A DNA stretch of 63,575 bases, the filler included, from an uncultured virus (IMG/VR IMGVR_UViG_2049941000_000092) (Duplodnaviria; Heunggongvirae; Uroviricota; Caudoviricetes). It is 5 parts of one record of this genome, joined end to end, with 100 filler letters (N's around TTAATTAATTAA, not from the genome) between each part and the next. Parts side by side here need not be neighbours in the genome. Positions count along the whole stretch, not along the records: positions 3,723 to 23,812 come from IMGVR_UViG_2049941000_000092; 4 more parts are not named here. One strand, given 5' to 3'. Below the pieces are notes generated by a model. That model was given only the letters and a program-made list of their open reading frames with translations, ran no database searches and was not told the DNA's origin. The first letter of the stretch is position 1; the number at the start of each line of letters is the position of its first letter. Position numbers and translations under genes: made by a program. This document shows positions 1,863 to 60,348 of the stretch, piece after piece.

Positions 1863-2079
1863 NNNNNNNNNNNNNNNNNNNNNNNNNNNNNNNNNNNNNN
1901 NNNNNNNNNNNNNNNNNNNNNNNNNNNNNNNNNNNNNNNNNNNNNNNNNNNNNNNNNNNNNNNNNNNNNNNNNNNNNNNNNNNNNNNNNNNNNNNNNNNN
2001 NNNNNNNNNNNNNNNNNNNNNNNNNNNNNNNNNNNNNNNNNNNNNNNNNNNNNNNNNNNNNNGCTACAAGACCAATCTG

Positions 2080-2153
2080 TGGCCCCACACAGGTTTGAAC
2101 TGTGGACCGGCGGATTATGAGTCCGCTGCTCTAACCAGCTGAGCTATGGGACC
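2080..2153 (-). tRNA. tRNA with CAT anticodon (Ile2-like, or Met)
   Basis: GGTCCCA/TGGGGCC acceptor stem, TAGCTCAGCTGGTTAGAGC D arm, GCGGA-CTCATAA-TCCGC anticodon arm, CACAG-TTCAAAC-CTGTG T arm; resembles bacterial tRNA-Ile2. Confidence 0.93.
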
Positions 2154-3500: not shown

Positions 3501-3622
3501 TTACTCATTAAACATTTTAGCTATATCGGAGTATACTTGTTCCACCATCTGTCGTTTAGATGCAGACAACTTTGATTTCTTGTCCTCAATGAGGAAATGC
3601 TCATTTTCCAACTCATTAAAAG
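3501..3622 (-). CDS. C-terminal fragment of a hypothetical protein
   Basis: FNELENEHFLIEDKKSKLSASKRQMVEQVYSDIAKMFNE* at the contig edge. Confidence 0.5.
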
Positions 3623-3722
3623 NNNNNNNNNNNNNNNNNNNNNNNNNNNNNNNNNNNNNNNNNNNNTTAATTAATTAANNNNNNNNNNNNNNNNNNNNNN
3701 NNNNNNNNNNNNNNNNNNNNNN

Positions 3723-4957
3723 AGATAAAGCCCCGTTATTCACAGGGCTTTATTTTCTTCCATAGTACTTCACAGCAATACGGAATAGCAAAGGCAGTTT
3801 AATTATGTCAAAACACCAACTCGTAGAACCTCAGAAGACTGTCAGGTCTCCTGAGATTGGATAGGGCCCTTTTGGGATGCTTTTTTAATGTGGAATATAC
3901 TGCTCAATACTAGGTTGAGGGATACCAAACCACTACTAGGATTGTCCTAGCACAAAAATGAAACTGAAAATAATGTGTTCAAGGAAAACCTGGCAGTCTG
4001 TGCGTGGATAGATGTGCTATGAGTGAATCACTTACACCAAAACTCACTCTTTTACCTTCCTACCAGGTTTGAGGATTCAGCTCATGGCTTCAATAGTAGC
4101 CGTGGGAGTCCTGCTAAAAAAACGTGTCCGATAAGCGTTTTGATTGGAAACGTTCTCGGTATACTAGCATAGCACCATAAAACACACGCGTATATTTTGT
4201 GATGCATAGGATTGGTGCCCAACCACACCCTCTGGACCAGATTATTTAACTTCACTTTATACCAGACTTTCGTTGAAGCGATCCTGTAGCATGATACCAT
4301 ACAGGCTTGGATTAACTAACCAGTGTTAAAAGATTGAACGGACTAGGCGTCACCGTTGTGTAGGGTTTACTGCCATTTTCACCCCTTCAGACCGTCAAAC
4401 CTCAGCGTATAGGGACGGACAGCCTTTCTTCTGCGGGCTCTACTGGATGTTTTTGCGTGAGTCTCCCTCTCATAATTTGAGAGCCGCTCGATGTTGGGAA
4501 GTTTTAAGTCTGGTCCGTCAGTTCGTTTCCCCAAGACTATCCCTATTAAGCCAGGATGGACTGACCAGTTTACGTGTGTCATCCACGCCTGAATTTAGGC
4601 TGTTTTCGCCAAGGATCGGTGTTCCTTCACGTCGCGAGAAATGATTCGCTAGTGACAACCAGGTCATATATAATCCGTATGATACGGCTACGCATCTATC
4701 TGGTCTTTCGATGCCTTAAAAAAGGATGGGGGAATAGGCATCACCCCCGATGAGACAGCCACAAGTCTCTTTAAGTCGTGTGTTACCTATAAGGAATGAA
4801 TCCGAAGATTAAATTCCTGTCTAGGTTTAGAAGCCAGAATCCGCGAGCGTCTGGATACATATCTCAGTTATCTGGTGAGAACGTACCCGAAGGTGATTTA
4901 ATTGTGCCACCATGCATGAATCCATACACGGTGACACAATTAGGAAATCACTGCTTC
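3723..4957 (-). ncRNA. candidate large structured ncRNA or ncRNA cluster
   Basis: No credible ORF over 1.2 kb; more than 12 hairpins, most with G-U pairs only on the minus strand; two cUUCGg tetraloops. Confidence 0.5.
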
Positions 4958-4958
4958 A

Positions 4959-5627
4959 TTACGCCTGCGGAGCGGCGGGAGCCGCGGCCTCGACCGGAGC
5001 GGCATTGTCAGCCGGTGCGGCAGCGGCGAGTTCTGCGACTACGCCTCCGACCGGAGTGACATGATGCGCATCTTGCTCTCTCGTCTCGACGTGAGTGACG
5101 GCGGTGCCGTACTGGTCGACGAGCTGTTCCTTGGTGATAGGATCGAGCGTCGGAACGCGGTTGGGACGGCCACCCTGGAAGACAGGAACGCGAATCTTCA
5201 GGTCGTCGAGGACCTTGATCGCACCCATTTCGCAGAGTTTCGCCAGACGGGCTTCGTGGCCACCGGCCTTGTACCAGCTCTCGTTGACAGGACGCTGGTC
5301 GGAATCGGTGCGGCTGAGGAAGCTCAGAGAGAACCACTCGTTAGTGGTGACACCACCGCGGGTACGCGTGGCCAGAACGAAGAACGCATAGCGAGGCTTC
5401 TCGCCAGTACGCAGGTCACGCTGGACACGCTGCTTGCGACGGAGTTCCGGACGAGTCTTATACGCTTCGAGAGAAGCAAACTGCCAGATGTCACCCTGCT
5501 GAGTGAGGAATCCACCGAAAGGCTCACCTACGCCTTTCAATTCGTCGAAGTCGAAAGACTCCGAGGGGCGCTGTGCCTCCTGATACATCTCAGGAATGGC
5601 GCCGCTGATAGTAACGTTTTTTGCCAT
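4959..5627 (-). CDS. hypothetical early protein (222 aa, Ala/Pro-rich tail)
   Basis: Clean ORF with strong C/G-ending codon bias and AT-rich leader; similar to 5737..6285. Confidence 0.85.
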   Translation of the reverse strand: MAKNVTISGAIPEMYQEAQRPSESFDFDELKGVGEPFGGFLTQQGDIWQFASLEAYKTRPELRRKQRVQRDLRTGEKPRYAFFVLATRTRGGVTTNEWFSLSFLSRTDSDQRPVNESWYKAGGHEARLAKLCEMGAIKVLDDLKIRVPVFQGGRPNRVPTLDPITKEQLVDQYGTAVTHVETREQDAHHVTPVGGVVAELAAAAPADNAAPVEAAAPAAPQA

Positions 5628-5685
5628 ACTTATAAGGAGTTTGTTATTTGCTTTCGGATTTATTTTATGCCTTAGTTCCCAAACG

Positions 5686-5717
5686 AAAAAGAAAAGCCCC
5701 GTTTTTGACGGGGCTTA
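5686..5717 (-). terminator. intrinsic terminator
   Basis: Minus strand AAGCCCCGTC-AAAA-ACGGGGCTT followed by TTCTTTTT. Confidence 0.8.
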
Positions 5718-5736
5718 ACTCGAGAGTTGGTGGTGA

Positions 5737-6285
5737 CTAGGAAGCGAGGTTGAACCGGTGACACATCAGCGGACGACGTTCCGACTCAGGCTTCTCGGCA
5801 CTGTCACGGATGACCTTGCCATTCTGGTCGAAGTCGTTGGTGTGGAACGGAGCGTCAGTGACGCGGATCATGCCCTCGCCAGCAAGCTGAGAGAGTTTGG
5901 CCAGACGCTTGATGTCGGACATCTTGGACAGAAGCGGTGCTCCCAGCACATTGCCCTCCATAAGCTTGGAAATCTCATCTTTGAGGGCAGGCATGCGTCT
6001 CAGGATAGAGAGAGGCATCTCGATCGCACCCTGACGATCGGACTCGATCGCAGTGTAGAGAATCGGGAAGGTCTTCTTCCCAATCTTCTCACGACGACCC
6101 CAGATCCGGATCTTGTCGAAGGGCGGCAGCGTGATGATCTCGCCATCGAAGAACTCGAAGGGAATACCCTTCTCGCCACATTCGAGCCACTCGGAGAATT
6201 CCTCAGGTTTCTCCCCAACCTGCTTGAAGTCGAAAATGACATCCTTAGAGGCCTCTTTCACGACCTCTTCAATGTTCTTTGCCAT
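5737..6285 (-). CDS. hypothetical early protein (182 aa), probable paralog of 4959..5627
   Basis: Clean biased ORF; shared MAKN, FDF, LSxLxR and RLAKL motifs. Confidence 0.85.
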   Translation of the reverse strand: MAKNIEEVVKEASKDVIFDFKQVGEKPEEFSEWLECGEKGIPFEFFDGEIITLPPFDKIRIWGRREKIGKKTFPILYTAIESDRQGAIEMPLSILRRMPALKDEISKLMEGNVLGAPLLSKMSDIKRLAKLSQLAGEGMIRVTDAPFHTNDFDQNGKVIRDSAEKPESERRPLMCHRFNLAS

Positions 6286-6409
6286 AGAACAATTAGTTAT
6301 TAGTGTTTGACATATCCTGTTTTAAACGCACAGGTGCGTCGGTTCGTATATCGCCCCACCGCGAAGGCGCCCCATTTATAGAGGAGCTGTTGTGTACGTG
6401 CTCTTAATA

Positions 6410-6745
6410 CTAAGGAATGTAACGTTCTTGCCAGTCCTGATATCTGTCAAGATTGGCAGGATCGGCTTTAAACTCACGAACCAGTCGCTTGGCAAGATCT
6501 ACCAAGTTGTCGACCGTCATAGTTTTACCAGGCGAGGCGAAGATAGACAGCTCGTAGTCGTTGATGACTTTGCCGTCCAACCACACCTTGATGCCTGCAC
6601 GCGGAAACTCACCACCCATATCCTTGATGGTGAGTTCGTACATAGGAACGGTGCGAGCATTTCTCACTTTATCGGCGCTTGTCTCGCAGACACGCAGACT
6701 CACGAGAAGCTCGGGTGACTTGTGTTGAGTTGATGTTGGTAACAT
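6410..6745 (-). CDS. hypothetical protein (111 aa)
   Basis: Part of a tightly packed minus-strand operon. Confidence 0.75.
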   Translation of the reverse strand: MLPTSTQHKSPELLVSLRVCETSADKVRNARTVPMYELTIKDMGGEFPRAGIKVWLDGKVINDYELSIFASPGKTMTVDNLVDLAKRLVREFKADPANLDRYQDWQERYIP

Positions 6746-6748
6746 AGG

Positions 6749-6973
6749 CTAATCCCAGTAAGGATCTGGAGTTGGGCACTGTTCAAGAATCTCATACTCA
6801 ATCTGTGATTTCACTTCGTTGAGCATGGCTACGAGAGCTTCGCATTCGGCTATTGCAGCTTTGCACTGGCCGTTTGCTCCTTCGGGGTCATCGCCTTCTT
6901 GGCGATCGATGAGAGGCCGGATTGCCTGTGTGACGGTTTCCAGCTGTTCTGAGAGTGTGACAACGTGTGCCAT
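6749..6973 (-). CDS. hypothetical protein (74 aa)
   Basis: Tightly packed operon, ATG to TAG. Confidence 0.75.
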   Translation of the reverse strand: MAHVVTLSEQLETVTQAIRPLIDRQEGDDPEGANGQCKAAIAECEALVAMLNEVKSQIEYEILEQCPTPDPYWD

Positions 6974-6979
6974 AGATTG

Positions 6980-7360
6980 TTACTTTGCGACCTTCTCGAC
7001 TTTGGCCTCTTGGGCCTCATCGTCGAAGATGTTGCTCTCACCAAGCTTGATATGGCAGAGCTTACGGCAGAACTTGCGCAGTTTCCGCTGCTCTTCCATT
7101 GGATCGAAGCCCATCTTGTGAGCTTCTTCCATCGGGTCACCAGGACGAGGATTGTCCTTGGCCCACTGAGACGGCTCCCAACAGCCAGTCTCTTCATTAA
7201 GCTCCTGGAGCGTGTGACATTCTGCCTCTTTGTCCCACGCGTCGATCTTCTCGACGAAACCGTCGAAACGATCAAGATTGTCAAGAACCTGACACAGAAT
7301 GATCTGGTCGTTGATGTTGAGTTTGGCAGACACGGCGAGGATACCCCAGCCTTCCTTTGC
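6980..7360 (-). CDS. hypothetical protein, 5' end in gap
   Basis: KEGWGILAVSAKL...KVEKVAK*. Confidence 0.7.
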   Translation of the reverse strand, partial: AKEGWGILAVSAKLNINDQIILCQVLDNLDRFDGFVEKIDAWDKEAECHTLQELNEETGCWEPSQWAKDNPRPGDPMEEAHKMGFDPMEEQRKLRKFCRKLCHIKLGESNIFDDEAQEAKVEKVAK

Positions 7361-7681
7361 NNNNNNNNNNNNNNNNNNNNNNNNNNNNNNNNNNNNNNNN
7401 NNNNNNNNNNNNNNNNNNNNNNNNNNNNNNNNNNNNNNNNNNNNNNNNNNNNNNNNNNNNNNNNNNNNNNNNNNNNNNNNNNNNNNNNNNNNNNNNNNNN
7501 NNNNNNNNNNNNNNNNNNNNNNNNNNNNNNNNNNNNNNNNNNNNNNNNNNNNNNNNNNNNNNNNNNNNNNNNNNNNNNNNNNNNNNNNNNNNNNNNNNNN
7601 NNNNNNNNNNNNNNNNNNNNNNNNNNNNNNNNNNNNNNNNNNNNNNNNNNNNNNNNNNNNNNNNNNNNNNNNNNNNNNNNN

Positions 7682-7983
7682 TGAACAAATCGCATCCACG
7701 TTTTGTCATCATGCTTGTACCGTTCCGTTGTACGTTCAACAACCTTTACAGTTGATCCAACGTCAAATTTGGACAGTTGTTTGGCAAGACTGTGTTGGGA
7801 AGAAATTGTGTATATAGAACCTTTCCACACAATCTTAACTTCTGAATCATCTCGATAACCAACGGTGAGTTGTTCACCTACAACAAGACGGAACCACCAC
7901 GGAGCCCCAAATTCAACAAGTTCTTGAAAACTGATCGTTTTTCTTAATCTCTGTTCGAGATTGATGTTGATGAATCTGCACAT
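7682..7983 (-). CDS. hypothetical protein; C-terminus lies in displaced segment 9538..9580
   Basis: MCRFININLEQ...KTWMRFV; 7682-7702 is repeated at 9560-9580, which continues HKFEIVK*. Confidence 0.65.
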
Positions 7984-7999
7984 GTTTGCTTCGCTTGCG

Positions 8000-8398
8000 T
8001 TAAACGATAGTATCGTCATAGACGTGTCGAAGTTCAACAAGAAACAGATGTTTCACGATGACTTCTCCGTGTAGAACTTTGACACAAATGCCACGATAGA
8101 TGCCAAGATGGCCCTCGTCGGCATAACGCTGAATCGCCTCCTTAATAGGCAACTTGTAATAATCCTGGTTCTTTCTGAGCCACTCGATATCGGCGGGTGT
8201 GATTGCCTCGGGCTCTAAGAATACCAGTGAATCAGGCATGTCCTTCTTCTCATTGTGGTCGGGAAGAAACAGGACTTCGCCAAAACGGCACCGATCGACA
8301 TACATGTTGATGCCGTCCTGGACACTTGCGGTTATGCGATCAACAAGGCGTGAGTTGCCGTGTTTGTCGCAGAGTTGGAATACGCAGTACGTTCTCAT
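8000..8398 (-). CDS. hypothetical protein (132 aa)
   Basis: Operon packing, ATG to TAA. Confidence 0.75.
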   Translation of the reverse strand: MRTYCVFQLCDKHGNSRLVDRITASVQDGINMYVDRCRFGEVLFLPDHNEKKDMPDSLVFLEPEAITPADIEWLRKNQDYYKLPIKEAIQRYADEGHLGIYRGICVKVLHGEVIVKHLFLVELRHVYDDTIV

Positions 8399-8410
8399 GA
8401 TGTTTGCACA

Positions 8411-8749
8411 TTAAACGTCCCATTCTCTACGGGCTTCCTCGAAAGTATTGCCCATCTTCATCCATACCTCAATTTCATCACGGAGAGCAATGAACATTCG
8501 TTCCTTGTCAGAACCGAGATAATTGAGATCTCCATCGTCACCCAGCAGGCCAAAGATCTGGTCTGCGGTATAGTTCTCCAGAAGTGCAGGAACAGCGTCT
8601 TCTGGACTGATAACATCGCCTGTACGCTCGTTGATCATGTTGAGGTAATTCGTGATGATCCCGTTGATTGCAGGCATTGCGATTTCGGCGGACATGTCGC
8701 CCCATCCCAGCTTTTCGCTGATCGCAAGATGGAAAGACTCGAGAAGCAT
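8411..8749 (-). CDS. hypothetical acidic protein (112 aa)
   Basis: Operon packing, ATG to TAA. Confidence 0.75.
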   Translation of the reverse strand: MLLESFHLAISEKLGWGDMSAEIAMPAINGIITNYLNMINERTGDVISPEDAVPALLENYTADQIFGLLGDDGDLNYLGSDKERMFIALRDEIEVWMKMGNTFEEARREWDV

Positions 8750-8751
8750 TG

Positions 8752-9207
8752 CTAATCGTTATTGTTTTCTTGGGTTTTCATCCATTCGTAGAACTCATCA
8801 TCGATGATGTTGAGTATTCCGACGAGAATGTGTCGCGGCATCTTGGCCGTGGTCGAGAAGTACGACTCACCAACTTCGTTGTGAGTGCGATAGAGTGAGA
8901 ATTGAATTCTGCCAATCTGGATCGAGTTAGATGTGTAGAATCCTTCTCTCCGAAGCTTGTACTCACGGCGGAGGAAATCGTAGAACGCATCATCGTCATC
9001 CGGTAAGGACCAGTAACAATGAGATTCTTTCTTTCCATCACGAAGAGGTACGAGTTCACTCCACACCTCAAACGTGAGTGGCTTCCATGCGTCGTTTTCG
9101 CCGACGATACGGAAGGAGCGGGCCTCACCAAGACCCTTGACCATGTAAGTCTTTTTCTCCTTCGGGTTGAACATGAGTTGCATATGATGCTTGGTATTGA
9201 TTGTCAA
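8752..9207 (-). CDS. hypothetical protein (~143-151 aa, start uncertain)
   Basis: Operon packing; a downstream ATG (MQLMFN) may be the true start. Confidence 0.7.
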   Translation of the reverse strand: MTINTKHHMQLMFNPKEKKTYMVKGLGEARSFRIVGENDAWKPLTFEVWSELVPLRDGKKESHCYWSLPDDDDAFYDFLRREYKLRREGFYTSNSIQIGRIQFSLYRTHNEVGESYFSTTAKMPRHILVGILNIIDDEFYEWMKTQENNND

Positions 9208-9311
9208 ATCACAATTTTGAAAACTTAGACCCTACCCCGGTCATTGGTATATTTAATTTCATTTCCCCAATGATACTGGCAGGGGGTGCTGATTACTGAG
9301 TNNNNNNNNNN

Positions 9312-20073: not shown

Positions 20074-21125
20074 ATGGAATTTAAAAAGAAAACAATCATC
20101 TGGGAAGATAATAACGAACCACCGAAAAATTACATCTGGGTAAAATCGGATGGTAAGATGTATGAGTATAGTTATATAGAAAAGGCCTGAGTTGAATCTG
20201 GAGCTGTATCAGGTAATACTAATAACGAAGAAAATAGTGGCGAAGGAAATAACGACAATGAAGGCGCGGAAGGTAAGGAAGTAGGTATCGATTACGATTT
20301 CCTAATGGAAGCCAAGAGACTTATAGAAAACTCTTTCAATCATACATTTACTTCGGACGATGTTTATCCGGTTGACCAAACTAGTTACGAACCGGGGGAA
20401 GAAAATGTTGTTACTTTAGGAGATAAAGACACCGCTGAATATATGACCTGAGCTTACGATGCAGATACAAACACACCATATATTATATATCTTAAGAATA
20501 AAGAATTAATTCTGCTCTCACAAATGATAGGTCCGTACGACACTTCTGTTGGTTGAGTTGACTTGGGACTACCATCAGGTAATTTATGGGCAGATATGAA
20601 TGTTGGTGCGAAGGTTTCTACAGCCAGTGGCCCATTTTTCTATTTTGGTATATGCAACCCTATAAACGAGTATTCTACAACTGGAGCAAATGCATTATGG
20701 CCAAATCCAGATGTGCTATACGCGGAGATGTTTGGGGCTCCACAAAAGNNNNNNNNNNTTTCGAAGAACTGATTAGTGGAACGATACAAACCGTTGAAAC
20801 AATAGACAACGTGGAGGGTATATTATTTACATCCAAAGTTAATTCAAATTCCATCTTCATACCATTATTAGGATATTATGAACCAACTGGAGCAACTGGC
20901 GACGAATTTAGAAGCAATGGTACAAGACTTCATACGGCTACAGAAGATGGACAATATGTATATTATGTACAGCTTAGAGTTGAACAAGGTGAACCTGAGA
21001 TTGGTATAAATTTAGGATATACAAATGGCGCATGTACTGTTAGACCATGTAAACATACTTCTTCGGTTGTTTGGCCATGAACCATAAGTGCTGCAGACGA
21101 CCCCACCCCGATAAAATCTATGTAA
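20074..21125 (+). CDS. putative adhesin/tail-associated protein with VDLGLPSG domain, code 4
   Basis: G[W]VDLGLPSGNLWADMNVGA..SIFIP..G..VRPC, a Bacteroidota motif. Confidence 0.75.
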
Positions 21126-21143
21126 TAAGACTTTAATTATATT

Positions 21144-22327
21144 ATGAATAATCCTAAACAAATATTATGAATTGACTTAAATAGCATACNNNNNNNNNNA
21201 AAAACTATCTGTGGCTGAAAGAAGACGGTATATATACCTATACCAATGGCTGAAAGAAAACGAAAGTTTCTGAAAAAGTAGAAGGTATCGAAGAATCTTT
21301 AGGTGAATCCGCAGATCCAAAACAGATATTGTGGGGAGATCTTAACTCTGTACCACCAAGAAATTATTTATGGAACAGAAAAGACGGTATATACAAATGG
21401 TTTGGTGACTCATGGAAAAAATATTGGACACTTAAAGATGTAGATGGAGAAGAGGAAGAAGAGAATCCTTATGCAAAAATGCCATTTACTGCAGAATTTA
21501 TTGTAGGTGGACGTGTATGATGTATAACAAAAGGAAATCCTGTGGAATATTCAATAAACGGTGGTGAGTGGACATCGGAATTCGACTATAGTACTTTTGT
21601 CGTTGAAGATGGAGACGTCGTACAGTTCAGAGGAACTGGCAGTAGTTATGCGCAGGGTAACGGATTTACGTTTTTACATGATGAGCGTCGTACCGGAATT
21701 CGATTTAATCTTAAAGGTAACATCATGTCACTTATTGCTGGAGAAGATTTCGAAAATGCAGATGGTTCAGAACTTGGAGCAGGCGCTTTCAACAGCATGT
21801 TTTATAATAGCGAGAGTGTTGTAGATGTAAGTAATCTGGTTCTTCCGGCCACGGTACTACCACAAAGTTGTTATAATAGCATGTTTTATCAGTGCCCTAA
21901 TCTAGTGGATGCTTCTTTTGAACTGCCAGCTACGACATTATCGAAGTATTGTTATATCAATATGTTTCAAGGGTGTACAAATCTTGTNNNNNNNNNNGAT
22001 GTAAACGTTAAATTTGCTCCGACCGTTATATCAAGCTGTTATCTCAGTATGTTCGAAGGATGTACGAATCTCGTTATGTCTCCGGAACTACCTGCTACAG
22101 CTTTAACCGGTGCATATAGCTGTTATTATCAAATGTTCAAAGGATGTTCTAAGATAAATCGTGTGAAAGCTATGTTTATTTCTGTAGATCCACATCCGAG
22201 TTCATTTATGTATGGTTGACTTACAGGTACTGCTGCGAACGGAGTATTGATAAGAAATCCAGAAGCGGTATGAGATCCGACAAATGAATTCATTGTACCT
22301 TCAGGATGAACGGTACAATCTGCATAA
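21144..22327 (+). CDS. BspA-like LRR surface/tail protein, code 4
   Basis: LPATxLxxxCYxxMFxGCTNL repeats; ends VPSG[W]TVQSA*; duplicated N-terminal module. Confidence 0.85.
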
Positions 22328-23811: not shown

Positions 23812-23987
23812 GNNNNNNNNNNNNNNNNNNNNNNNNNNNNNNNNNNNNNNNNNNNNTTAATTAATTAANNNNNNNNNNNNNNNNNNNNNNNNNNNNNNNN
23901 NNNNNNNNNNNNATATTTGCGCCGATAATATCGGATAAATGTGTTTATAAGAAAATGAATGTTTAACTTTAAACTTTTGATATATAG

Positions 23988-41403: not shown

Positions 41404-41546
41404 NNNNNNNNNNNNNNNNNNNNNNNNNNNNNNNNNNNNNNNNNNNNTTAATTAATTAANNNNNNNNNNNNNNNNNNNNNNNNNNNNNNNNNNNNNNNNN
41501 NNNATCGTGTTTATTATAATAGGAATGTATTTAAAAGAAAAGAGTA

Positions 41547-44499: not shown

Positions 44500-45629
44500 A
44501 TGGCAGACGAAAAAACTTATGTATTTGATGGTGCTTCTCGTAACGATATCCCACTTGCTTACGCTCTCAATAATGGAGGCGGATGAGGTAACGGATTAGG
44601 TGGCTGAGGTGGCGGAATCGTAGGATTCCTGCTCGGTCTCGCTTTTGGCGGTTTTGGTGGTTGAGGTGGTTTCGGCGGCTTTGGTGGAAACGGCATTAAC
44701 GGTATGGTTAATTCNNNNNNNNNNNNNNNNNNNNNNNNNNNNNNNNNNNNNNNNNNNNNNNNNNNNNNNNNNNNNNNNNNNNNNNNNNNNNNNNNNNNNN
44801 NNNNNNNNNNNNNNNNNNNNNNNNNNNNNNNNNNNNNNNNCCTTCAAGCAATTAATGGAACCGATGCAGATGTTCGTCAGTTAGCTACCACTTTAGGAAT
44901 GAATTATGAAACTATAAGTCAGGGAATCTCTGATGCTAGATTAGCTCTTGCTAATGTTGGCTCTCAGGTTGGACTTTCTGGTTTACAGGTACAAAACGCA
45001 ATNNNNNNNNNNNNNNNNNNNNNNNNNNNNNNNNNNNNNNNNNNNNNNNNNNNNNNNNNNNNNNNNNNNNNNNNNNNNNNNNNNNNNNNNNNNNNNNNNA
45101 ATCTAGAAGTATTACAGAATCTACTAGTTCTGTTACTTTCAATTTCAATACTTCTCCAGCAGTTAACTCTAGATTTTCTGGTTTAATTGCTGTAAGAATT
45201 GATGAACAAGCAGCAACAAGTGGAGACGCACTTCCTGTTTATTTCAATGTTCCTAGTGTAGCTGGCACTAATATCGCCGTTACTACATTTGGAGGTACAC
45301 CTGTAAGTGGAGTTGAAATGACAGAAGGAATACATCTAGTATTCTATGATAGAGAAAATGGTATATTACAATTATTAATTTAGTTTAATTATGNNNNNNN
45401 NNNCTAATAATACAGCTCTTAAGACTCAGATTGATAATGCTAATCAAACAGCTGCTGTTGCCGCTATGCTCGCTCCAATTCAGAAAGAAGTTTCTGAAAT
45501 CAAAGCTGCACAACCTNNNNNNNNNNTACAGTACAGTATCCTCAATTAACCGCTATTCCGTCTTACTATTTATACGGTAATTCTAATTATTTCCCATATT
45601 ACGGAGGCACTGGCTCCATCTGAGCATAG
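44500..45629 (+). CDS. Gly-rich membrane/coiled-coil protein of a conserved Bacteroidota-phage cassette; gapped and mis-ordered; code 4
   Basis: MADEKTYVFD..GGG[W]GNGLGG[W]GGG..FGG[W]GGFGG; QAING; ends GSI[W]A*. 45100-45383 probably belongs to the next gene (ATG 45644). Confidence 0.7.
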
Positions 45630-45971
45630 GAGGGCTCCTAACTATGGCAACGAATTTCGTATATAACAGAGTAAATATTANNNNNNNNNNNNNNNNNNNN
45701 NNNNNNNNNNNNNNNNNNNNNNNNNNNNNNNNNNNNNNNNNNNNNNNNNNNNNNNNNNNNNNNNNNNNNNNNNNNNNNNNNNNNNNNNNNNNNNNNNNNN
45801 NNNNNNNNNNNNNNNNNNNNNNNNNNNNNNNNNNNNNNNNNNNNNNNNNNNNNNNNNNNNNNNNNNNNNNNNNNNNNNNNNNNNNNNNNNNNNNNNNNNN
45901 NNNNNNNNNNNNNNNNNNNNNNNNNNNNNNNNNNNNNNNNNNNNNNNNNNNNNNNNNNNNNNNNNNNNNNN

Positions 45972-46375
45972 CTAATGCGTTTGGACAACCTCAAGAATTG
46001 GTAGTAGATTTAGTTATTAAACTCAACGATATTACTGTAAATATGAATGCTATTCCAGCTCAATTGGATATAGCGGATTCTTACAGTAATGGTGAAAATT
46101 TAGTTATTTCAGATAGTAGAGAAGCGATGAATTCTGAAATATTGAGTTTAAAGCAGAAGAGTGTTGATATAATTAATAGTGCACCATATCATAAAAGTTT
46201 AATTACAACTTATGATAAATTGTTATCTGATTTTAATCCAGAAATGGCTGAAAAACAGGCACAACAAAAAGAAATAAGTGAACTACGCGCTCAAATGGAT
46301 GAAATGAGTAGGAATATGGCCTTATTGATTAAAGAACTTAAAGGAGGACCAATTAATGAGAATGTGGGAAATTAG
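45972..46375 (+). CDS. conserved phage hypothetical protein, C-terminal part
   Basis: VVDLVIK..ISDSREAMNSEI..NPEMAEKQAQQKEISEL. Confidence 0.75.
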
Positions 46376-47420: not shown

Positions 47421-50400
47421 ATGTCAAAAAATGTAATTCTTAAAAAGAAAGGTGAAGCGATATTTCCTATAACCAAGTATGAAAATATATTAAATCCTCC
47501 GGATATAAAAGTGGAAGAGGTGCATGTTGGAGACACCGCTCCAGAACACGCGTCCATGTGGATTGATACTTCGGATAATGTAGGAGATTTGCCTGTTGAC
47601 CAATCTACAATTATTAGATCTATTCAGACAGCTGTATATACATTACAGCAGAAAGTATCGAAACTGATGTTACTAAGAACCAACGGTGTTGTTTCCGGTA
47701 ACCTTACAGACGGTACTCTGACAGAACTAGGCAACAGTACCGAAGCGGTAATTCCATCTATTATTGAAGATGATTATGAAGAATCCGGAGATGTTGAATT
47801 TCCAGAATACGCTTCGGAAAGTGAGCCTACGGTTAATCATGTGTCTATTAAAATGGGCACATATCAAGAGATACAAAGTAGTAAAAGATTTTTTATTAAC
47901 GGAGAATTAGTATGGTGTACAGATCGTTTATGTATGTACATTTATAATAATGGTAATTTCTACATAGTGGCATCTTCGAATTCTCCCACACCAACTGATG
48001 ACGAAATGGATACTGCAGAACTTCAAAATTATTTAAACAATCTTTCTTCGATTAGTTTTGTACCACTAAACGACGAAAATTCCACATATACTGTTCGTGT
48101 TAATGAATACGGAAATCTAATCGTTTACGATTCAAATAACGATGTTGTACAGGCCGAGCCAACAAGTAACACCATTTACTTCAATAATAGTGGAATGGGA
48201 AGCCTGATTATCAACTCGTTCTATTTAGGTGGGCTGGATACAGACGAACACTCATATCAGCCGTGTTCTCATAACTATGTGGAAATCGCAAATATATCTT
48301 ACGACGATATTAATCTAAACGGTTTACAGTTAATGTATACCTATGATAACAGTAGGTGGTTTAAACTTCCGTTATGGGGTGTTTGCAAAGCTCAATCTAC
48401 ATTCCTAATTCGTGGTGCCCAATGTTCCGTAATGGATGTTAATACGACTCTAATAAAGGTTAAGACATTCGATATGGAATGGCGTGCTGACGGAGAATTA
48501 ATCAAATTTGATAGAAATAATCAATGTGCCACATTCTATCTGTGCTGATATGATATTGAATCTGGCAAAATTTATGTAAGAGATACGTCCGGTGGAACAT
48601 CCAATCCTATGAAGGATTATCCGGAATCTGCACTGGACTTAATTAATACTGATGAAAACGCGCCTTCTGTTGCTCGCGGTTACGTTGATTTAGCAGGCGT
48701 TGGTAATGGAGCGAGCATAGCTGAAAAGAATAAGTATGTTCCTACCAGCGGCATTACTCCGTATACCCTATTCAAGAGAAACTATACTCTTGATCCGGTA
48801 TCTCAATCTAACGCTAAATCAATTGATAAACGAAACAACAAGAAATTTTGGAAAGATATCGATATGTCTAAGGAGGTATTCGACAATATCGTCGACTTTA
48901 CTCCAAAGGCTAGTTTTGAAAATAAGAACGCTTCTTTCGATAAGCATAACTTCTTAGAGGATCGCCCGAATACACTAACTTGTTCCTTTGGTATCCAGGC
49001 TACTGATAATACTGGTTCGGGTGGCAATGGTGCTACACGATGCTTTAACTGGAACTCGGTTGGATACTATGACGAATTCCTGTGGTATAAGAAATCTACA
49101 GACGCCGATTGGTCATGCGTCGAATCTTATAAGGAAGGTGTCGATTATACTGCTGCAACCGGCCTGAATCGCCCTACTGATCCTGAATGTATCAAACTCG
49201 GCCTATCCGAATATTACACTCGTATTAGATGGGAGACTTATTATGGTGCTGCTATAACAACTCACAAAGTGATGATTGCTGGTTTGACTGCTGGTACATA
49301 TAGTTTCAAGGTTGGCAGAAAGAACGCTTCTGGAGAAGTTAGCGATTATGTGAGTAAGACCAGAACGTTTGTTGTTCGTGCTGATAATGATGTGCAATCG
49401 TTTGACTTCATTCAGACGACTGATCAACAAGGTGCAAACTGGGAAGAATATCAAGTATGGGATCTGTCGGCAGATTATATCAATAGAAACGAGCGTGTTG
49501 GACAGACACCTGTGGTCGCACAAGGCGATCCCACCCCTTCTGCAAACGAACACGATTTTGACTTTACTATCAATACTGGCGACATCACCTATAACGGTTC
49601 CCGTCCGAATGAATGGATTGACTACTATAGAGGATATTCTTATCTTGATGATAAAGAGGAAATGCTGACGCTTGGCAATAATGACCTTGCTCCAGTTCCG
49701 GAAAATCCTAATGACGTATCTAATCCTGAATTACTTGGAATGACGTTACTAGGAAATGGTTCCGAAACTCCTTATAAAGTAAATCATGTTGTTGCAGATC
49801 TGTTCTATACTCAGGAAATGGATTACAATAATCCTCCTATTTTCGAAGGCACATCTGTTGTCAGTGGTGCTACAAAGACGTATAAGGTTCCTTCGCTGTA
49901 TTCATTCAACTACGGCCCTTATCACTTCATAAGCCTCAACTCTGAGATTAGAACTATGCCGGACGACCCTTCGAAGATTACTACGCTACGTGGTGAATTT
50001 GGTGTAGAAGATCAGGCCAACGGCGCAAGACGTTCCGTTATTTATGATCAAATTGAGGATTGGATGGTTAGAGATCTTCTTATCTGGAAACAAGGTTCTG
50101 TTCCCGCAGAATATGACAGATATACTCCTCAGAATTGCCAGAAAGCAATCGTATACTGCCATGAAATGCCATTCACTATTACTGCTGAAGCTACATATGA
50201 AGAATATGTCGATCCTACTAAGGAAGGTACTATCTGGCGTGAAAAAGCAAAGGCCAACCTCAACCTAAGACATAATTTCGAATTCCAGAGACTATTTAAG
50301 ATTTGGAATATCCGTCTTGTTTTCGGTGGACATAAGCACACGTGCTCAATTTCCTATCCAATTTACGACGCTCCTACGGCATATGTTCCTTATTCTGATA

Positions 50401-60240: not shown

Positions 60241-60348
60241 CAGCGANNNNNNNNNNNNNNNNNNNNNNNNNNNNNNNNNNNNNNNNNNNNTTAATTAATT
60301 AANNNNNNNNNNNNNNNNNNNNNNNNNNNNNNNNNNNNNNNNNNNNTT

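Follow-up and report, generated by a model that had tools for sequence, protein, structure and literature searches.

An expressed, unclassified non-coding tract of a crAss-like rumen phage, with a conserved hairpin module and a syntenic link to GOLLD

What is made from a 1.2-kb stretch of phage DNA that follows a gene directly and holds few open reading frames (ORFs) of its own? This question is raised by positions 3723-4957 (the tract) of the window, the whole stretch of 63,575 nucleotides (nt) that was analysed, in which segments of one phage genome are joined artificially, such that adjacency across the linkers is not real. An earlier note on this DNA had seen in the tract a densely hairpinned candidate for an undescribed phage RNA, either of a new class or an array of small RNAs, in a recoding phage. 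It was found to be a genuine non-coding tract, expressed and as yet unclassified, whose synteny links it in an interesting way to the large phage RNA family GOLLD, though the evidence does not extend to an ornate large RNA. The interpretation towards which we lean, with moderate confidence, is that the tract is the co-transcribed, modular non-coding RNA tail of an abundant gene of 222 amino acids (aa), situated in a slot for stable RNAs.

The central observation is a predicted structured module that begins immediately behind this gene. The earlier note had the tract start right after the gene, and the measured gap is indeed 1 nt. The features concerned are as follows:

4959..5627, minus strand: the 222-aa gene, an ORF call belonging to an uncharacterised phage family, from which RNA contigs continue into the tract

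4780..4948, minus strand: Block A, a conserved and putatively structured module that occupies some 150-170 nt directly after the stop codon, with helices P1 to P3/P4 and a conserved single-stranded stretch (alignments A2/A3)

4900..4941, minus strand: P1, a predicted long hairpin of 18 conserved pairs, with about 20 bp plus an extension in the minimum free energy (MFE) fold of this phage

For comparison, four syntenic loci from metagenome contigs could be used (L005, the same as L006 over 942 nt, was counted once, and L007, with 28 residues matched at E 7e-4, was dropped as doubtful), and a smaller protein alignment added three IMG/VR phages (L030, L031 and L032; 168-177 kb) that are more distant. 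P1 lies right behind a homologue of the 222-aa gene at seven of seven loci (window, L003, L004, L006, L030, L031 and L032), 10-16 nt behind the stop codon, and in the three distant phages the model R1 matches it with 46.7, 31.4 and 25.7 bits. Over the seven sequences, 94.4% of 126 cells in P1 are paired, as against 80.2 ± 2.3% in shuffles (0 of 500) and 24-44% in slid controls; seven of the 18 pairs are changed on both sides, and a U-G pair is present in six of the seven sequences. The upper stem, UCACCGU/ACGGUGA, is invariant, upper stem and loop being conserved in sequence across the seven loci, and it is the lower stem that covaries. The Block A consensus, derived from four sequences, comprises 34 pairs with 93.4% of cells paired compared with 84.3 ± 2.1% in shuffles (0 of 500), and 10 of its pairs are changed on both sides (slid controls 32-43%). 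In G001, the 177,170-bp virus record that contains the tract, Block A is a single copy as judged by R1. P1 and Block A together represent a well-supported new RNA element, conserved and covarying, and the stem singled out by the earlier note at 4900-4941 proved to be this 42-nt hairpin, with its three G-U pairs. Searches with a P1 core pattern gave no match in IMG/VR; nine matches in genomes were set aside as chance, one that was viewed (L014) lying inside a 553-aa ORF and the remaining eight being located, to judge by the titles, in metagenome-assembled genomes or genomes of Proteobacteria and Actinomycetota.

The tract is also present in RNA libraries. Six RNA runs, chosen for holding window positions 3723-6300, contain 29-51% of the words of that stretch, and four of them, from four studies, were compared by means of contigs that carry no strand, ends or level. 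The 222-aa gene and the tract are covered in four of four libraries (X15, X17, X18 and X19), where the longest and deepest contigs are found, and the upstream 182-aa gene, within the searched stretch, is covered in none of the four; such uneven cover argues against plain DNA carry-over. Contigs bridge the stop codon in X15 (5615-4043), X17 (5593-4584) and X19 (5644-4343), further pieces extend down to 3990 in X18 and from 3973 to 3792 in X19, and positions 3723-3791 have no contig cover, a gap from which nothing can be concluded. The tract is physically continuous with the 222-aa gene in these libraries; the contigs pass into it from the gene and so give no sign that it is a separate unit. The sense strand of the transcript is probably the minus strand, that of the gene, as the earlier note had assumed: the G-U pairs, the near-invariant U-G pair in P1, the asymmetry of folding and the colinearity with the gene all point there.

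A further clue comes from what lies behind the gene in sister phages. In L003, L004 and L006 it is followed by an ORF-poor stretch of 1.2-2.8 kb that reaches the contig end. Only two blocks align between relatives, namely Block A (about 160 nt), present in all, and a second element, Block B, present in the window, L003 and L006; the two lie about 170 nt apart in the window, and in L003 and L006 the distance is about 270 nt and 2.35 kb, respectively. In L004, a match to GOLLD (RF02032) was retrieved at 2184-2575 on the gene strand (plus), with 79.3 bits, E 1.5e-20 and model positions 1-415/416, a score below the gathering score of 150 bits for a match that ends at the contig end; in L030 and L032, tRNAs lie 280-390 nt behind P1. 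What these comparisons show is the conservation and covariation of P1 and Block A and the differing cargo of sister phages; any function of the tail in trans would be conjectural.

Given the cargo of L004, the tract could itself be one large structured RNA of about 0.7-1.2 kb, a new class that is the counterpart of GOLLD and ROOL and is expressed from the same slot. This is in keeping with the GOLLD-like RNA of L004 occupying that slot, where the distance from the stop codon to the GOLLD 3' end is about 1247 nt against 1235 nt for the tract, with the recovery of the tract from RNA libraries, with the persistence of ORF-poor tracts in relatives, with a covarying stem in Block B and with natural variants that preserve some hairpins. 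We nonetheless regard it as unlikely, largely on account of folding and alignment. Amongst 150-nt windows on the minus strand, folding clearly better than shuffles is limited to 4848-4997 (z -6.0) and 3723-3872 (z -4.6), and the mean 150-nt z over the tract is -0.60 on the minus and -0.56 on the plus strand, which does not surpass the -1.31 and -0.71 of the neighbouring genes. The central 975 nt (3873-4847) gave z -1.36 on the minus and -1.54 on the plus strand, two of 20 shuffles folding as well on each, and the counterpart of the tract in L003 gave -1.42 sense and -3.12 antisense, whereas the GOLLD-like stretch of L004 (816 nt), included as a control, gave -4.90 sense (0 of 20 shuffles) and -1.21 antisense. 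Since the control scores -4.90, the test can see an ornate RNA in this context, and none is seen in the tract, the centre of which lacks the large, strand-specific stable fold of GOLLD. The segment 4340-4957 does differ between strands (z -5.0 minus versus -0.6 plus), a value that is presumably driven by P1. Moreover, nothing outside Blocks A and B aligns among relatives, and the spacing of these blocks varies as given above.

Searches with known families were also made. With GOLLD there was no match at E<=10 in window positions 3723-5000 or 3723-4420 and none at E<=1 across G001, and with ROOL (RF03087, 99.1 bits) there was no match in the tract or in G001, the control genomes likewise being without a match in the G001-wide search, which is weak evidence by itself for that reason. 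An Rfam scan, which the earlier note had proposed, assigned the tract to no known family: none reached its gathering score, and the matches at E<=10 were small and at chance level (e.g. mir-2300 on P1), with no large-RNA family among them. Of the two outcomes which that note had left open, an array of small RNAs or elements fits better than a new large-RNA class; one large ornate RNA is not supported, in that the centre folds like shuffles with no strand asymmetry and only about 150 plus about 40 nt are conserved. Similarly, whilst all 21 of the 21 motifs that it had quoted were recovered at or near their minus-strand places, the description of the tract as densely hairpinned does not survive the RNAfold-type z check that it had itself suggested, as beyond its two ends the tract folds no better than shuffles. 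A general caution follows, namely that ORF-poverty and many hand-found stems are no evidence of an ornate RNA.

A broader proposal, to which we assign an equally low likelihood, is that rumen crAss-like phages of about 170-177 kb possess a dedicated slot for large stable RNAs, marked by P1 and placed behind an abundant OB-fold-like gene. The cargos of this slot would be swapped amongst phages: a GOLLD-like RNA, tRNAs or, in the present phage, a new long RNA around a Block B core, a counterpart of GOLLD and ROOL whose fold, being dependent on partners or on multimerisation, would not be caught by z-score tests.

The tract is non-coding, and its ORF-poverty over 1.2 kb was confirmed in that no credible ORF exists under four codes. 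The longest minus-strand ORF is 72 aa with table 11, and the maxima under reassigned stops are 72 aa (TAG=Q), 90 aa (TGA=W) and 123 aa (TAA=Q); stop-to-stop frames do not exceed 104 aa, and one sense frame holds 22 stops. When nine stop-to-stop frames were compared with PHROG, none matched at E<=0.01, the only faint match having E 0.053. The idea that the tract instead encodes several small proteins, under the standard code or one in which TGA means tryptophan, draws on sense ORFs of 72 and 67 aa, on others of 82, 75 and 71 aa with TGA=W, and on a phage tRNA with anticodon UCA. It is most improbable: 5.8 billion clusters contain no homologue of the 67-aa or the 72-aa sense ORF, the tracts of L003 and L004 contain no sense ORF of at least 50 aa, and contigs of two studies show a 1-nt deletion at window position 4122 that shifts the frame of the 72-aa ORF. 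In addition, tblastn of 49 frame pieces against relatives gave matches over Blocks A and B only, spread over several frames and both strands, a pattern typical of nucleotide rather than protein conservation, and no conserved frame with homologues in relatives was found in either code. Genes with TGA=W were rejected, as the candidate frames look random and the longest one is hit by the deletion at 4122, and single reassignments of TAG, TGA or TAA likewise yielded no gene in the tract.

Another alternative places the function in the DNA: the hairpins would work at that level, as part of a replication origin or regulatory region. It takes encouragement from L006, where the interval between Blocks A and B (about 850-2700) contains iteron-like arrays (31 nt x3, 21 nt x3 and 21 nt x3) plus dispersed repeats, and from the weak leads of the flanking 222-aa protein to phage single-strand-binding proteins. 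In the present phage, however, no direct-repeat family was found in L002 9800-11200 (L002 being the locus taken from G001), and cumulative GC skew reaches its minimum, together with the strand switch, near 109 kb of G001, at a distance of 4.8 kb from the tract; the tract, with a G+C content of 40-50%, shows none of the direct repeats, A+T-rich element and skew switch of an iteron origin. The G-U pairs hold on one strand only, and the tract is present in RNA libraries. We therefore consider a DNA-level element very unlikely.

The remainder of the tract contains a number of shorter predicted elements, which are listed here from the 5' end of the minus strand:

4792..4818, minus strand: putative cUUCGg-loop hairpin, lineage-specific, with a natural variant UACG

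4720..4748, minus strand: T1, internal terminator-like hairpin GGGGG..CCCCC plus U-run, from a pattern scan (L002 10078-10096 plus tail)

4588..4626, minus strand: Block B core, AGGAACACCGAUCCUUGG, a variable stem-loop and CCUAAAUUCAGG, from sequence comparison with L003 and L006

4467..4483, minus strand: putative CUCUCA/UGAGAG hairpin, in which a variant changing A-U to G-U pairs on the minus strand only

4172..4205, minus strand: GCAUCA..UGGUGC hairpin predicted by folding, with a variant changing C.A to C-G

3830..3855, minus strand: predicted hairpin CUCAGGAGAC/GUCUUCUGAG near the 3' end, from the fold, within 3723-3872 (z -4.6)

3727..3751, minus strand: T2, final intrinsic-terminator-like hairpin of 10 pairs with loop GAAUA, read from the sequence and absent from the pattern-scan list

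Both T1 and T2 have the G+C-rich hairpin and U-run of an intrinsic terminator and may be regarded as candidates for one; contigs of X15, X18 and X19 span T1, and the U-rich tail of T2, AUCUUUUC, continues in G001 past the window junction. The flanks of Block B (18+12 nt) are identical in the window, L003 and L006, where the flanking proteins are only about 50% identical, and the closing pairs of its variable stem, as read from the alignment, differ (GGC/GCC, GGAAU/AUUCC and GGA/UCC). Block B was found at three of the seven loci, being absent from L004, L030, L031 and L032, and a consensus fold on three sequences is too weak to use. A 17-mer from Block B had three matches in IMG/VR, which were discarded as coding-looking DNA with no similarity past 18-19 nt. 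Several natural variants amongst the differences listed appear to keep local hairpins, though such variants are few: T>A at 4805 (X19 RNA contig) turns the cUUCGg loop into UACG, A>G at 4478 (X15, X18 and X19; three studies) turns A-U into G-U in the CUCUCA/UGAGAG hairpin, and A>G at 4178 (X15 and X18; two studies) turns a C.A mismatch into C-G in the 4172-4205 hairpin.

Poor conservation of much of the tract raises the prospect of a decayed remnant, of a GOLLD-like RNA, a tRNA island or genes, which would be transcribed by read-through and be functionless except for P1 and the terminators. The middle of the tract is little conserved and without a fold signal, cargo has been gained and lost among sisters, and indels occur among natural variants, as such decay would predict. 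It is harder to reconcile with the identity of Block B over 18+12 nt despite flanking-protein identity of about 50%, and no trace of GOLLD, ROOL or tRNA was detected in the tract at E<=10; to our knowledge, phage genomes rarely retain 1 kb of junk. A remnant is, in our estimation, rather improbable.

We return to the tract as a co-transcribed non-coding tail of the 222-aa gene, for which the following course of events may be envisaged. Transcription from the promoter of the gene would read through P1 and a leaky T1 as far as T2. P1 may be a processing and/or protein-binding site, comparable to RNase III-type or operator hairpins, which would separate and stabilise the mRNA and the RNA that follows it. 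T1 would act as a leaky internal terminator, permitting read-through, and T2 as the final one. Between them, Block B would be a small conserved structured element, and about 800 nt of the tail would be lineage-specific with few locally maintained hairpins. In general terms, the slot behind P1 might serve the expression of stable RNAs, the cargo in this phage being the lineage-specific tail and Block B.

A number of points weigh against this interpretation. Of 500 shuffles, 17 reach the both-side change count of P1 and 152 reach its number of further pair types, and the support comes from four sequences for the whole of Block A, seven for P1 and three for Block B, with structures derived from the same alignments. 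Contigs of this kind, from runs that had been pre-selected, do not prove co-transcription as one molecule, and the part behind T1 might have its own promoter. ORF-poor tracts that persist at 1.2-2.8 kb would be odd for a mere spacer and leave room for a large functional RNA, particularly as a thermodynamic z-score can miss folds that need tertiary or intermolecular contacts.

The 222-aa gene is itself G+C-rich, at 60% in a genome of 37.6%. It belongs to a block of small genes at window positions 4959-9220 on the minus strand (L002 5606-9867) with G+C of 47-60% and a third-codon-position G+C (GC3) of 55-71%; the block ends at the tract, and the genes behind the tract drop to 36-40% in the same comparison. 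The protein had 12 homologues, of which the closer ones (P0002-P0006) share 65-88% identity with it, and a profile of the protein family retrieved 46 clusters; no match was found in IMG/VR with the single protein or with alignment A1, nor in GTDB genomes with A1. No Pfam or PHROG family was assigned to it, and a PHROG family was assigned in 0 of 40 relatives. Its predicted model (pLDDT 80.5) found nothing in the PDB with Foldseek at E<=0.001, and a search of BFVD gave one match, to an uncharacterised protein. The best VIA-wide fold rows were phage single-strand-binding proteins (Z 3.5 and 3.0), and a fold atlas lead scored 0.83, under the atlas bar; a likeness to single-strand-binding or OB-fold proteins may be suggested by these weak leads only. 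The upstream 182-aa gene is conserved as well (47-55% identity in L003, L004 and L005), and the possibility that the two proteins are paralogues was dismissed, there being no detectable relation (E 0.41).

The tract matches the other strand of G001 over 1235 of 1235 bases (100% identity), at 113.9-115.1 kb. The plus strand of locus L002 corresponds to the minus strand of the window, with window position = 14826 - L002 position. Four N44-TTAATTAATTAA-N44 linkers are present in the window (3623-3722, 23813-23912, 41404-41503 and 60247-60346), together with many further N runs of 10-660 nt each. The tract border at 3723 is artificial, because it adjoins the first of these linkers and G001 continues there with sequence unlike that of the window.

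The tract belongs to a large crAss-like phage (177 kb) of cattle rumen, so the Crassvirales context given by the earlier note holds: G001 has a Crass_capsid match (32 bits), and the crAss muzzle protein is matched by two separate ORFs, 45217-46002 and 47599-48879 (L020), at profile positions 964-1185 and 362-544 of 1224. No DNA or protein match was found among GenBank phages. A tmRNA lies at 120299-120691 (Rfam, 67.1 bits), and at least 14 ordinary tRNAs are spread over 120.9-146 kb (L024 and L025), window positions 2079-2153 on the minus strand also being among the places concerned; this tmRNA/tRNA island begins 5.2 kb downstream of the tract on the same strand. A tRNA with anticodon UCA, which would read UGA, is encoded at G001 145708-145779, and a recoding member of the Crassvirales is a reasonable context for the tract. 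NrdD is present as a 377-aa fragment (173142-174272; L026), and other genes are likewise fragmentary; this and the split muzzle protein hint that stop codons are recoded, or that introns or split genes occur, in some regions of G001, in the first 140 kb of which no intron family reached its Rfam gathering score. ORF-poor tracts are not unique in this genome, because two others, at 20326-21837 and 94799-96062, exceed 1.2 kb and lack any ORF of at least 75 aa, neither containing an Rfam family at gathering score.

Some observations on the neighbourhood and on sister loci deserve mention in their own right. An X15 RNA contig starts at L002 11362 (G001 115361), outside the segment of the window, where it is joined to an 18-nt loose end that resembles a sequencing adapter; such a junction suggests that the fragment ends discretely here, possibly where the next transcript after T2 begins. 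In L003, a sub-threshold match to Hammerhead_3 lies at 3532-3587 on the plus strand (25.3 bits, E 0.1; gathering score 48.5), and at about 6855-6895 on the same strand the position of T1, about 110-150 nt past Block A, is taken by a strong hairpin and U-run resembling a terminator, as read from the fold and not in the pattern-scan list. The interval of L006 at about 850-2700 also holds a 44-nt hairpin element in three copies and a 48-nt A+T-rich element in two, and is possibly an origin or regulatory region.

No paper describing the element of the tract was found, and term searches of two crAss-like phage papers (PMC7886860 with 0 hits and PMC12386605 with 1 unrelated hit, main texts without supplements) returned nothing on non-coding regions. 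The structures of GOLLD and ROOL are known and their function is unknown, hence the value of a slot that offers comparative context for their purpose and expression: a GOLLD-like RNA, tRNAs or an unclassified tail appear to interchange in one conserved position, which the same hairpin and the same abundant gene always precede. With the upper stem invariant, P1 provides a concrete candidate element for processing or protein binding.

Known systems offer parallels at several levels. In phage mRNAs, long hairpins between cistrons serve RNase III processing or transcript stability, as at the T7 sites and lambda sib. P1 resembles these in its helix of about 20 bp, some two turns of predicted double-stranded RNA, and in its location behind the stop codon of an abundant mRNA and before a downstream RNA; it differs from them in the sequence conservation of its upper stem and loop, a feature that RNase III can do without and that suggests a sequence-specific binder. 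The gene 32 mRNA of T4, which encodes a phage single-strand-binding protein, is under autogenous control. In the present case the element would lie 3' of the gene rather than 5', and the likeness of the protein to single-strand-binding proteins consists of weak leads, yet here too an abundant small gene for a protein with a possible nucleic-acid-binding likeness carries a conserved, putatively structured element on its own mRNA. According to PMC12286853, GOLLD and ROOL are nanocage-forming RNAs encoded by phages or prophages, often in the vicinity of tRNA islands, and GOLLD is conserved in its 3' region and variable in its 5' region. Unlike ROOL, the tract has no match to the ROOL model, although the two have rumen origin and phage association in common (PMC12286853). 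Unlike GOLLD, the tract has neither a match to the GOLLD model nor a strand-specific fold signal; like GOLLD, it is phage-encoded, long and non-coding, it lies near tRNA genes, with the tRNA/tmRNA island downstream serving as a context feature only, and a sister phage, L004, holds a GOLLD-like match in the same syntenic slot.

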